From: Eledone cirrhosa
Taxonomy: Eukaryota
Assembly (NCBI GenBank): GCA_964016885.1
Contig: OZ024740.1
Coordinates: 276,148,001 to 276,212,000 of the forward strand
Reading direction: 5' to 3'
DNA: 64,000 nt
Shown: piece by piece, positions 63 to 62,608 of the stretch
Numbering within the stretch: position 1 is the first letter of the stretch
How the letters are laid out: the number at the start of each line of letters is the position of its first letter
Program-made: the position numbers and the translations under genes
The notes under the pieces: model-generated
What the model saw: the letters and a program-made list of their open reading frames with translations, nothing else
Databases searched by the model: none
Told to the model about the DNA's origin: nothing

Positions 63-1449
63 CATATATGTATAAATATATATATATGTATAAATATATA
101 TATATATATATATATATATATGTATAAATATATATATATATGTATATATATAAATATATATATATGTAAATATATATATAAATATATATATATATATAAA
201 GATATATATATATATAAATATATATATATATAAATATATATATATATATATAAATATATATATATATATAAATATATATATATATATAAATATATATATA
301 TATATAAATATGTATATATATATATAAATATATATATATATATAATATATATATATATAAATATATATATATATATATATATATATATATATATATATAT
401 ATATATATATATATATATATATATAAAAATATATATAAATATAAATATAAATATATATATATATATATACATATATATATAAATATATATATATAAATAT
501 ATATATATAAATATATATATAAATATATAAATATATATATATATATAAATATATATATATATAAACATATATATAAATATATATATATATATATTGTTAT
601 ACTTTGGGAGGGTCATGTTGCCAATAACTTATTGGCAACATGACCCTCCCAAAGTATAACAATATCGGTTTCAACACACGATTTCAGATAAAGAATCTTG
701 CTAAACAAATTCAGAAACGAAATATATATATATAAATATATATATATATAAATATATATATAAATATATATATATATATAAATATATATATAAATATATA
801 TATATATATAAATATATATATATATAAATATATATATATAAATGTATATATATAAATATATATATATATATAAATATATATATATAAATATATATATAAA
901 ATATATATATATAAATATATATATATATAAATATATATATATATAAATATATATATATAAATATATATATATATATAAATATATATATATATATAAATAT
1001 GTATATAAATATATATATATAAATATATATATAAATATATATATATATAAATATATATATATATAAATATATATATATATATAAATATATATATATATAT
1101 AAATATATATATAAATATATATATAAATATATATATATATAAATATATATATATATAAATATATATATATATAAATATATATATATATAAATATATATAT
1201 AAATATATATATAAAATATATATATATATAAATATATATATATATATATATATATAAATATATATATAAATATATATATATATAAATATATATAAATATA
1301 TATATATATAAATATATATAAATATATAAATATATATATAAATATATATATAAATATATAAATATATATATAAATATATATATAAATATATATATAAATA
1401 TATATATAAATATATATAAATATATAAATATATATATAAATATATATAT
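63..1449. repeat. (TA)n/(TAAA)-interrupted microsatellite tract
   Basis: Near-pure TA/TAAATATA repeats, interrupted by a foldback element at 591-721. Confidence 0.95.
591..721 (+). mobile_element. Foldback terminus of Penelope-like element family A (37-bp inverted arms plus ~55-nt tail)
   Basis: 591-627 is the exact reverse complement of 629-665 with a 1-nt spacer. The tail CGGTTTCAACACACG...CAGAAACGAAA follows. The same sequence occurs at ~3229-3277, ~58280-58330 and 62464-62608. Confidence 0.7.
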
Positions 1450-2914
1450 GGCCTCAGCCGGATGGCTGAAACAGGTAAAAGAGTAATATAAATATATATA
1501 TAAATATATAAATATATATAAATATATATATAAATATATAAATATATAAATATATATATAAATATATATAAATATATATATAAATATATATAAATATATA
1601 TATATATATATATAAATATAAATATATATATAAATATATAAACATAAATATAAATATATATATAAATATATAAATATATATATATAAATATATATATATA
1701 TATAAATATATATATATATATATATAAATATATATGTAGATAAATCTACTAAAATATACAGTAGGGTCCAATCCGTATGAAGAAATCAATGTAATCAAAA
1801 TATCATGAAAAGAGAAGATGTATTCAAAATTTTTTCGATGAAAAACACAGGAAAACAAAGTCAAGATAAATTAATAAAAATAAGGAATAAAAACAAAGAA
1901 ACTGTTCCTTATATTAAAAAATTCATCATTTTACGATCGTTTCTAGGATACATATGTGTCTGTTGGTATGTATATCATATAGATCTATGAAAAAGTTTTA
2001 CAAACTATCAGAGGGAATATTCATACCTACACATATATATGCTGTCTTCAGAAATCATTGTTTCTACGTTAGGCACAAGGCCAGCAATTATCCAGTGTAT
2101 TACTGGTACTTTATGTTATCGACCCCGTAAGGATGAAAGGCAAGAAATAATGATATTTGTTTATGGAAAAAAACCAACAAAGATTTAATATAATAAGTCT
2201 GTTTGGGAATAGGTTTTGAATTGACCAATAGAAAAGTAGTAAGTGGTCAAGTTGATAGAATAGGAGTAGTAGAAATTTAATTTAGGGGTAGAGGAATGCA
2301 GACTTCAGTTTTGAATGGAAAGAGTATTTTGGATGTAAAGATTACTTTTGGGATGAAAATAGGTCAAGCCGATGAAAGATACACGGAAATTTGATGTTAT
2401 TAAAGAATAATGCTAATGTTAAAATCAAAGGAGAATAAAATTTTACTATAAATGTGTTAGTGAAAAATATCAATCTTATTTAAAACATAAGGAATATAGA
2501 TCTATAAAAAGAAATTAAATTAATTTAATTGATAGGTATATTTATAGGGATAAATTTATATTAATTCATATAGATATGATAAATAAGAGTTAGATGTTAT
2601 TAAAGAATGTTGTTAAAAACGAAAGGGGGGGGGGGTAGATTATAAGGAATTTAGATTCATAACAGGAAATTAAAATAGTTTATAAGTATACTTATTAGTA
2701 TAAATTTTAGCAAAAGATAGCTGTAAAAGGGAAATAAAATTATGCAGTTCTTAGTAGTAGAATATTAATTATAGGTTAACTAATTTTAAAAAATTAATTA
2801 TAATAATTTGAAAATATAAGTGTATATTAATTAGTTTATAATATTTGAAAGTTTTTCTAATTCTATGATACAATTAATTCTTGTCGCTTATTTAAAAGGA
2901 TATCCTCAGATTTC

Positions 2915-3277
2915 ATTATTTCAAAAACCAACCAGTAACATGTAAATAAACAAATAAATAAACAAATATAAACACACACCACAGACACCCGGACATGCGC
3001 AAGCTAAGCACACAACACACACAAAAACAAGATGGCGTAGGACAGAACAAAGGAGAGACACAAAAACAAAGAAAAGAATCGCCAGTCACTGAAGTGGTCA
3101 CAGAATGTGTGACGAAAGAACTCTGACAATATATAAACAATCATCCGGTTGTGGAACCAACCAACCAACCAATTTATAAATTCCTAAATTTATAAATTTA
3201 TTATAATAAATTGAAATGAAAGCAACTGGTGCATGTGTTTCTTATTGGCAACATGACCCTCCCAAAGTATAACAATA
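2915..3277 (+). mobile_element. Penelope-like family A terminal-repeat fragment with hammerhead motif
   Basis: Homologous to 58054-58330 (AAGATGGCGTAGGA...CAGTCACTGAAG...GGTTGTGGAACCAACCAACC...CTTATTGGCAACATGACCCTCCCAAAGTATAACAAT). Ends in (TA)n. Confidence 0.65.
3085..3127 (+). ncRNA. Minimal type-I hammerhead ribozyme motif (A9U variant, possibly inactive)
   Basis: GTCA-CTGAAGT-G-GTCACA/gaatg/TGTGAC-GAAA-GAA-CTC-TGAC: stem I GTCA/TGAC, 6-bp stem II, NUH = CUC. Confidence 0.55.
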
Positions 3278-3310
3278 CATATATATATATATATATATAT
3301 ACATATGAAT

Positions 3311-3643
3311 ATCATCATCATCATTTTACGTCCGCTTTTCCCTGCTTGCAAGGGTGGGACGGGAACTCATTCTGGCTTGATTTCTACAGCTGGATGCCCT
3401 TCCTAACACCAACCTCATTTACAGTGAGTGCTGGGTGGTTTTTTGAGGTGGCACCTCCACCACCACTTTGCAGAGGAATGATATGGACCCCAGTCCCTAT
3501 CATCTCATTTCTACAGCTGAGTAAACTGGAGCAATGTGAAATAAAGTGTCTTGCTCAAGGAAACAACACATCACCCGGTCTGAGAATTGAACTCACAACC
3601 TTTCGATTGCAAGGCCAATGCTCTAACCACTAAGCCATGTGCC
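3311..3643 (-). mobile_element. tRNA-derived SINE family 1 (CORE-like centre, RTE-type tail)
   Basis: Minus strand has A box TGGCTTAGTGG, B box GAGTTCAATTC, CCTTGAGCAAGACACTT core and tail ...GCGGACGTAAAATGATGATG. Confidence 0.85.
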
Positions 3644-4183
3644 ATATATTTATATATATACATATATATATATATAGATATATACATATATGAATATATA
3701 TACTTATAGATATATAGATATATACATATGAATATATATATATATTTATATATATATATATAGATATATACATATGAATATATATATTTATATATATATA
3801 TATATAGATATATACATATGAATATATATATTTATATATATATAGATATATACATATATATATACATATATATAGATATAGATATATATATATATATATA
3901 CATATGAATATATATATATTTATATATATAGAGATATATATATATGAATATATATATATTTATATATATATAGATATATACATATATATATATATTTATA
4001 TATATGTAGATATATACATATTTATATATTTATATATATATAGATATATACATATTTATATATTTATATATATATAGATATATACATATTTATATATTTA
4101 TATATATATAGATATATACATATTTATATATATATATAGATATATACATATATATATATTTATATATATATATAGATATATAC

Positions 4184-4330
4184 ATCATCATCATCATCAT
4201 CATCATCATCAGGTTTAGCGTCCGTGTTCCACGCTTGCATGGGTTTGGACGGGGGTTTTCCCACTTGAGGCAAGAGTGGTTGTCTTGCTCGCATAGGACT
4301 GTCTGGCGGGTTTTCTACAGTTGGATGCAG
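4184..4330 (-). mobile_element. 3' tail fragment of RTE LINE family 2
   Basis: Matches the reverse complement of 31960-32099, with a (CAT)n tail. Similar fragments occur at 18766-18850 and 23229-23396. Confidence 0.75.
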
Positions 4331-61890: not shown

Positions 61891-61954
61891 ATGAATTTCC
61901 AACTGATAAGGTATGATTTTCATGGATACGTCTCTATTTATAAAACAAACTTTG

Positions 61955-62019
61955 TATTTTATCTGATGAAAACGTACCAATGTTGTCATGGTTGCCCTTG
62001 AAATATATATAATAAAATA
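61955..62019 (+). ncRNA. Minimal hammerhead motif (family B) within fragment 61893-62062
   Basis: TATTTTAT-CTGATGA-...CCCTT-GAAA-TATATA-TA-ATAAAATA. Perfect 8-bp stem I; downstream sequence matches 8377-8420. Confidence 0.6.
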
Positions 62020-62086
62020 AATATGGTTTTATAAATATAGTTTCCATTTATTTAATATCATTGTATATATATATATATATATATAT

Positions 62087-62242
62087 CTAAGACGGGTAAA
62101 ATTCCCGAGATCCATGGACGAATTCTCTCCAGCGGTCTCTGTCCCTCATTATCGCTGCCATGTCCTGCGTCTCTAACAGACCAGCGTCTGTCCTTAGGAC
62201 ATCAACATACGTTAACCTTGGTCTTCCTCTTCTCGTGTGTCC
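62087..62242 (-). mobile_element. RTE-like LINE C-terminal fragment in (TA)n
   Basis: GHTRRGRPRLTYVDVLRTDAGL...MRDRDRWREFV...YPS*, followed directly by (AT)n. Confidence 0.7.
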
Positions 62243-62463
62243 ATATATATATATGTGTGTGTGTGTGTGTATAAGACGTTTAAGTTTTACTGCCTCGTAT
62301 AATTCTCATTCAACGCAGTTTCAATTTCGATGTTTAGGTCCAATATCCCACACCAGCTATGGTAAAATACAGTTGGCTAAGAATTCGAACCTGAGCCCTC
62401 AATGATTGCGAAACTAAGTTTATAATCACTCAGCTATGCATCTATGTATAACTATATATATAT

Positions 62464-62608
62464 ATATTGTTATACTTTGGGAGGGTCATGTTGCCAATAA
62501 GAAACACACGCACTGGTGCGTGTGTTTCTTATTGGCAAAGTATAACAATATCGGTTTCAACACACGATTTCAGATAAAGAATCTTGCTAAACAAATTCAG
62601 AAACGAAA
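62464..62608 (+). mobile_element. Foldback family A terminus (longer arms, deletion in right arm, same tail)
   Basis: ATATTGTTATACTTTGGG...AGAAACACACGCAC-TG-GTGCGTGTGTTTCTTATTGGCAA[del]AGTATAACAATAT, then a tail matching 666-721. Confidence 0.72.

Follow-up and report, generated by a model that had tools for sequence, protein, structure and literature searches.

Inverted, 5'-truncated copies that often bear a tail at one end only, together with targeting of (TA)n, have been described for Penelope-like elements (PLEs), including Hydra-1_Obim (Craig 2021, PMC8557442), and the tail is reported to sit on one of the inverted pseudo-long terminal repeats (pLTRs) (Arkhipova 2013, PMC3846280). Craig 2021 also attributes a (TA)n preference to octopus Hydra-1_Obim and Naiads and calls the origin of PLE inverted structures open. 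In vitro, a PLE protein that is predicted to dimerize nicks and extends both strands of AT-rich DNA, and its reverse transcriptase (RT) begins at two internal sites, one on either side of the tail (Frangieh 2024, PMC11167929). Octopus Penelope expansions have been noted (Marino 2022, PMC8967140), and 31 recently active Penelope-like families appear in a 2026 Octopus vulgaris annotation (PMC13282606). Here, we analysed a 64-kb stretch of the Eledone cirrhosa genome (contig positions 276148001-276212000; genome 3.0 Gb; hereafter the window), in which an initial annotation had pointed to at least seven short elements with inverted arms in or beside TA tracts. Each family of these foldback elements has two fixed 3' ends, and inverted copies almost always combine one of each.

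Masked self-BLAST and direct reading recovered inverted arms at 7/7 noted coordinates (591, 8064, 10131, 33831, 38863, 60810 and 62464), although 10131 is not in a TA tract; the arms at 38863 and 60810 are real, with element starts corrected to near 38803 and 60700. The seven foldbacks fall into five repeat families: A (591, 62464, and further copies at 2923 and 58062), B (8064, 60810, 61900), C (10131, 12689), D (33831) and E (38863). Their identity as PLEs is close to certain. Five of the seven foldbacks, those of A, B and E, derive from protein-coding PLEs, of which they are the 5'-truncated ends: their ends run into PLE open reading frames (ORFs) elsewhere in the genome. The accompanying description as ultra-short or non-autonomous families thus fails for these three and stands for C and D, for which no linked ORF was found. 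Inverted arms, a one-end tail, (TA)n targeting and minimal hammerheads are all published PLE features. Most of this biology is known, and the families join PLE clades already described; what is new is the count of the pairing rule, a modest and testable addition.

In every family, a fixed short and a fixed long 3' end lie 60-120 nt apart and are flanked by (TA)n. Family A was sampled from the first 100 end matches listed on one contig, 56 of which made up 28 inverted pairs as judged from their coordinates; the sequences of every pair and of some single ends were retrieved. Among the ends scored (89 exact and 13 near-exact), the tail length was 1 (short) in 53, ~61 (long) in 46 and other in 3. 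Alternating TA followed 89/99 short or long A ends and 64/69 B ends, against 13% of window positions, in agreement with the (TA)n targeting noted earlier. Inverted pairs of family A were short plus long in 34/37 cases (P ~6e-8 versus independent draws), the other three being long plus long, long plus read-through and short plus other. For family B, 30 loci and 20 pair regions from the first 100 matches listed gave 71 ends and 28 pairs, of which 27 were short plus long (P ~1e-7) and one was short plus read-through. Family E gave 23/23 (78 ends, 50 loci; every tail-less end scored short). Pooled over A, B and E, 84/88 pairs had one short and one long end, and short-plus-short pairs were absent from all three samples. 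The 12 two-ended loci among 22 of family D were likewise all short plus long, in a sample biased to tails in which two loci look duplicated. The rule is common to two proteins that do not align.

The lengths of the two arms follow no such rule. In family A, 32/34 mixed pairs could be anchored, and 26 of them had a clean junction, defined as no more than 40 unassigned bases. Of these 26, 13 had the longer arm at the short end and 8 at the long end, and in 5 the arms were equal within 5 nt; the tail arm could be shorter by up to 2 kb. In five A copies, found by searching all fetched loci, the inverted long arm measured 10-27 nt and lay wholly inside the tail, never reaching short-arm sequence. 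In family B, where divergence of subfamilies from the reference left 11/25 junctions usable, 6/11 clean junctions had arms equal within 5 nt. As the initial annotation had stated for A and B, fold points vary from copy to copy and the ends are fixed. Mismatch between paired arms was 3.2% (A) and 1.8% (B) compared with 8% between copies; this greater similarity within a pair points to one template. Separately, in four of the five tail-only A insertions (L130, L193, L205, L207) the junction with the sense arm falls at almost one position, ~30-35 nt ahead of the short end.

We consider it fairly probable that the elements are 5'-truncated inverted insertions of endonuclease-bearing (EN+) PLEs, whose arms were made by twin priming, one RNA offering two start sites. 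The PLE protein, a predicted dimer, would cut (TA)n, after which both target ends would prime on a single tandem transcript, the long site serving one of them and the short site the other. Both antisense complementary DNAs (cDNAs) would terminate prematurely or at a shared break in the RNA, and joining of their 3' ends would produce the head-to-head palindrome. With one site of a shared RNA assigned to each target end, an inverted insertion should always have one short and one long end, either arm may be the longer, and tail-only arms are expected; where both copies run to the same RNA break, the arms should be equal. The counts agree with these expectations. Families C and D would be moved in trans by PLE proteins of this type. 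For the stronger version, that PLEs integrate by obligatory twin priming, in which a dimeric RT-endonuclease uses two fixed start sites, one per target end, so that tail and 5' inversion are one event, we see about an even chance. No PLE paper using the term 'twin priming' was found in a search that had subscription papers such as Arkhipova 2006 outside its reach.

The same PLE identity could be combined with fold-back, whereby the long-end cDNA would snap back, copy to the short end and join the second target end, with unequal arms arising from later central deletions. Fold-back would account readily for the many near-perfect palindromes (15/26 B pairs, and the equal arms among the clean junctions of A and B), for the near-identity of arms and for the tight hairpin centres at 591 and 62464. 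However, it predicts a tail arm that is never the shorter, and this arm is shorter in 13/26 A junctions and tail-confined in five copies; explaining these by later deletion needs many one-sided losses. It also leaves unexplained the stop at the short end and the solo short-ended copies, which make up 18/28 unpaired A ends. We regard fold-back as rather unlikely, and on balance lean towards twin priming from two RT start sites. Several points nevertheless weigh against twin priming. No insertion intermediate was observed. The 15/26 near-perfect B palindromes, which run arm-on-arm across the centre, are predicted equally well by fold-back. The partner arm was the nearest sequence in only 10/22 (A) and 13/20 (B) pairs; junction microhomology was not enriched, and most junctions carried extra bases relative to the reference, partly reflecting subfamily differences. 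One long-plus-long pair occurred in A and one in a tail-biased B sample (L054). Palindromes can lose their centres after insertion, which could give short long-arms from a fold-back product, and deletions inside arms do occur (62464; loci L011, L022).

Such palindromes have also been read as products of self-priming (Arkhipova 2013, PMC3846280), a further point against twin priming. In the published reading, which keeps the PLE identity, an antisense or hairpin transcript would first self-prime to give a palindrome, which the endonuclease would then resolve through two staggered cuts, leaving the tail on one side (Arkhipova 2013; Craig 2021). Staggered resolution also yields one long and one short end, but the borders of the Poseidon tail are RT start sites in vitro on both target strands (Frangieh 2024, PMC11167929), and fold points here vary from copy to copy. 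We find this route improbable. That the elements are miniature inverted-repeat transposable elements (MITEs) or other terminal inverted repeat (TIR) DNA transposons, or palindromes created by long-read assembly, is scarcely credible. Terminal inverted arms in TA-rich sites do look MITE-like, but arm length varies continuously within a family from tens of nt to 3.8 kb, and the arms run into RT and GIY-YIG ORFs. Fixed TIRs and a DDE transposase were not seen, the long copies encoding RT and GIY-YIG instead, and the DNA transposon candidate is refuted at family level. As for assembly, raw Illumina reads from three samples showed opposite-strand joints at several internal points of the A end and TA loose ends at its short end; contigs of a fourth run carried TA loose ends at both A ends, and contigs on 8064 had the two arms joined at other symmetric points. 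These tests cover the families rather than the window's own unique flanks, and at family level the palindromes are not an assembly artefact.

The elements of the five families in the window are as follows.

591-724, + strand: family A foldback; inverted arm 592-627 to the short end, sense arm 628-664, then a 61-nt tail that reaches the long end; flanked left and right by (TA)n.
2923-3277, + strand: solo 5'-truncated copy of a family A subfamily, short end; 77% identity to the 4062-bp unit, hammerhead core at 3089 (descriptor).
8064-8519, + strand: family B (Hydra) foldback; 181-nt arms, 94-nt tail, one predicted hammerhead per arm at 8319 (+) and 8170 (-).
10100-10507, + strand: old family C copy; inverted arm ~10100-10247, sense arm 10253-10507, degenerate hammerhead core ~10384, without tail or TA tract.
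12573-12961, + strand: second family C copy, itself at 12689-12961, with a TA tract enclosed in a short hairpin ahead of it.
33832-34021, + strand: family D foldback stub; short end left, long end right, truncated downstream of the family's hammerhead.
38803-39006, unstranded: family E (Hydra) foldback; tail-bearing left arm, short-end right arm, with a ~70-nt hairpin of other origin between them.
58062-58330, + strand: solo family A copy, short end; 98.8% identity to the unit, hammerhead core at 58126.
60700-60897, unstranded: foldback of a family B subfamily; tail-bearing left arm, short-end right arm.
61900-62062, + strand: solo copy of a family B subfamily, short end; hammerhead core at 61963.
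62464-62610, + strand: family A foldback; fold point other than at 591, 14-nt deletion in the sense arm, long end right.

Arm identity was 98% over 49 nt at 591 and 98% over 362 nt at 8064-8425, and lower at 10139/10507 (74%), 33837 (82%) and 38870 (67%); the arms at 60810 and 62491 are short and near-perfect. The proposed order of inverted arm, sense arm and a 50-90-nt tail holds in part: tails exist in A (61 nt), B (94 nt), D (~121 nt) and E (~65 nt), but at 38863 and 60810 the tail lies on the left, 10131 is tail-less and the lengths span 61-121 nt. The hairpin between the two E arms (38893-38965, 70 nt) is of non-E sequence and has one partial match elsewhere (locus L293).

The family A ends lie 4062 bp apart in a tandem unit of 4062 bp, where they bracket an RT and GIY-YIG element. 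The best 40 of 954 candidates were 99-100% identical, and an exact 27-mer of the end occurs 26,134 times genome-wide, with 0 control matches. Uninterrupted full ORFs of 1227-1266 aa were present in 3/10 fetched long copies, the 1227-aa frame being the extension that the initial annotation had suggested looking for. Because this ORF starts inside the pLTR, the A tail is coding sequence. Consistent with this, tblastn placed ORF residues 1-27 at 640-720, where codons 1-27 of the foldback at 591 are encoded by sense arm plus tail, and residues 1-29 at 62526-62612. There is no RT or EN domain within the window, as had been stated. Pfam gave 22.7 bits for GIY-YIG on the C-terminal part of the A protein (cut-off 22.6) and no RT or EN match on full-length A and B proteins. 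A PDB sequence search with A alone found no RT, and a PDB profile search returned two bacterial RTs as weak matches. In a structure model of the C-terminal 713 aa (predicted local distance difference test score, 91), the family A RT appears most like telomerase RT, the top four Foldseek matches being telomerase RTs (E 5e-9 to 3e-7, TM-scores 0.35-0.37). The closest named relative of the protein is from Octopus vulgaris (70% identity). Residues ~250-430 form an asparagine/threonine-rich low-complexity segment; N-rich inserts in rotifer Penelope resemble it but sit at another position (Arkhipova 2013, PMC3846280). Two loci stand apart: compared with L031, the ORF of L032 has numerous replacements by G, R and V residues, a pattern that hints at A-to-G change prior to insertion, and L232 (C4:65635800-65642500) holds a 1407-residue open frame with Hydra-type RT motifs first and a family A end, probably a nested or chimeric insertion.

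Family B has a 3740-bp unit with ORFs of 737-742 aa in 7/10 fetched copies, including an uninterrupted 741-aa frame (RT plus GIY-YIG). Its RT/EN identity is suggested by the motifs RWR, SDKT and CNCRDRSKC, no CCHH, and CxxC and CxH near the end. An exact 30-mer of one subfamily occurs 4,519 times, and the family has matches in Argonauta. For family E, a pattern that bridges the long end and the sequence beyond it gave 114 matches, and 13/20 fetched copies reached a Hydra-type ORF ~105 nt further on; the frames are broken and carry RWK, SDKT and CSCRKPDAC. An earlier link of E to an upstream Hydra ORF in locus L331 was rejected, that ORF having its own 3' end; the link was later shown by these read-through copies. 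By the motifs that define the clade (RWK, DKT for DKG, CxCX5C, no CCHH), B and E are assigned to Hydra. At C2:169702714-169703471, five E-end matches are spaced 183 bp apart in a tandem array apparently derived from a Hydra pLTR, possibly a step from PLE to retrozyme. The full PLE arrangement of tandem or partial-tandem units forming pLTRs, an inverted 5'-truncated copy and a tail is present, for example, in loci L031 and L096.

Families C and D differ in scale. C has a unit of ~340 nt, with 77-85% identity among 30 loci, and D a unit of 522 nt whose longest ORF is 50 aa; both form partial tandems, mostly of 1-2 units, with one hammerhead each. The tblastn matches in C and D loci fall outside the units. 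In structure, C and D are probably best described as short hammerhead units resembling non-LTR retrozymes.

A type-I hammerhead descriptor matched 7 sites in the window, compared with a mean of 0.1 (maximum 1) in 30 local dinucleotide shuffles. The hammerheads that had been claimed for A and B are present in the window but sit in longer copies (3089, 58126, 8319/8170 and 61963), the foldbacks at 591, 62464 and 60810 being too short to hold one; at 10131, the C core is kept and the descriptor is not satisfied. By locus, hits were obtained in 29/30 (A), 29/30 (B), 19/30 (C), 18/24 (D) and 10/26 (E), counts in which neighbouring elements may be included. The window hammerheads have an extra base before helix II and a palindromic or near-palindromic loop III, both of which are PLE hammerhead features (Cervera 2014, PMC4209133), and are predicted to act as dimers. 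An Rfam scan showed no hammerhead among the 150 of 329 matches listed, which were microRNA models on simple repeats, and minimum free energy folding of seven candidate stretches gave z from +1.2 to -2.2, a measure that is uninformative for minimal hammerheads. By eye, and in A only, a few arms had their 5' end near the 5' edge of the hammerhead and none at the cut site.

The window contains further short elements of similar appearance. A TA-flanked hammerhead element at 34226-34390 (-; core 34321) has relatives in 12 fetched loci, one of them an inverted pair, and another at 60535-60690 (-; core 60658) adjoins the B-subfamily tail and has relatives in 3 loci. A stub within TA at 50940-51085 has relatives in 54 loci, and part of it matches downstream of the Hydra-type ORF in L331. 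Short repeats in or beside TA tracts at 1448-1490, 7813-7990 and 55806-55930 have relatives in 9, 10 and 5 loci. Fragments of long interspersed nuclear elements with RT and endonuclease motifs occupy ~4520-7620 (-) and 30320-31700 (+) and are presumably RTE-like. Tandem arrays comprise a 48-bp satellite at 14976-18432 (72 copies, 96% matches) and a 66-bp GTG-rich array at 25810-28098.

Taken on their own, these elements are ordinary PLE debris, but they are very abundant, exact ends numbering at least 26,134 for A and at least 4,519 for a single subfamily of B, and such stubs should be annotated neither as MITEs nor as separate short families. If true, obligatory twin priming would unite two hallmarks of PLEs that have long lacked an explanation, tail and 5' inversion, under a rule that in this genome spans two deep clades as well as short non-autonomous units and that tens of thousands of young copies make countable. 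As had been suggested, the families may be uncatalogued. An octopus Hydra family and Naiads with a (TA)n preference are already in Craig 2021; six motifs taken from A and B, five of peptide and one of DNA sequence, had no match in its supplement, in a text version with long runs shortened.

Compared with known systems, the canonical EN+ PLE insertion unit (PMC3846280, PMC8557442) shares with the elements described here the partial tandems, a head-to-head inverted copy, a tail on one pLTR, palindromic junctions, microsatellite targets and an overlap of pLTR and tail with the ORF start. It differs in its tails of 30-40 nt, as against 61-121 nt here, and the arrangement of one short and one long end, counted here in 84/88 pairs, is described there as optional. 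The Hydra clade, including Hydra-1_Obim of Octopus bimaculoides, has RW(R/K), DKT, CxCX5C, no CCHH, hammerheads and (TA)n in common with B and E. Hydra-1_Obim measures 2507 bp compared with 3740 bp for B, and its printed N-terminus and hammerhead are unlike those of B and E; from this by-eye comparison of sequences, B and E are separate families. Family A, with a C-terminal GIY-YIG, CCHH and a linker of C-x4-CxxC-x7-C, shares with the printed Nematis rows the C-x4-CxxC linker followed by a 7-residue spacer, where the Neptune rows have ~24 residues. This agrees with the reduced CX2-5CxxC linker plus CCHH that mark the Nematis clade. By eye, its linker spacing resembles Nematis rather than Neptune; set beside the same rows, it differs from both in DKS for DKG and in its N/T-rich N-terminal insert.

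Non-LTR retrozymes and non-autonomous PLEs (Cervera and de la Pena 2020, PMC7229834; Li et al. 2026, bioRxiv 10.64898/2026.07.22.740005) are, like C and D, short units with one type-I hammerhead each in partial tandems; D, at 522 nt, exceeds their 170-400 nt range, and most C and D insertions hold 1-2 units and show inversions as well as PLE-type ends. The Anolis Poseidon element PAc, studied in vitro, likewise has two internal RT start sites bracketing the tail, an AT-rich target cut on both strands and a predicted dimer (Frangieh 2024, PMC11167929). In B and E, however, the tail precedes the start codon, and both ends here adjoin TA-like bases, whereas the PAc start sites are reported to be non-homologous to the target; that paper leaves inversion unexplained. 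The near-strict pairing of two RT start sites, combined with arms of which either can exceed the other, restricts the possible models and yields a direct prediction for this existing in vitro system. In L1, twin priming, as Ostertag and Kazazian reportedly set it out in 2001, has two target ends priming on one RNA to give an inversion. The second site in L1 is reported to be variable and the segments not to overlap, whereas the two sites described here are fixed and the same sequence is usually present in both arms.

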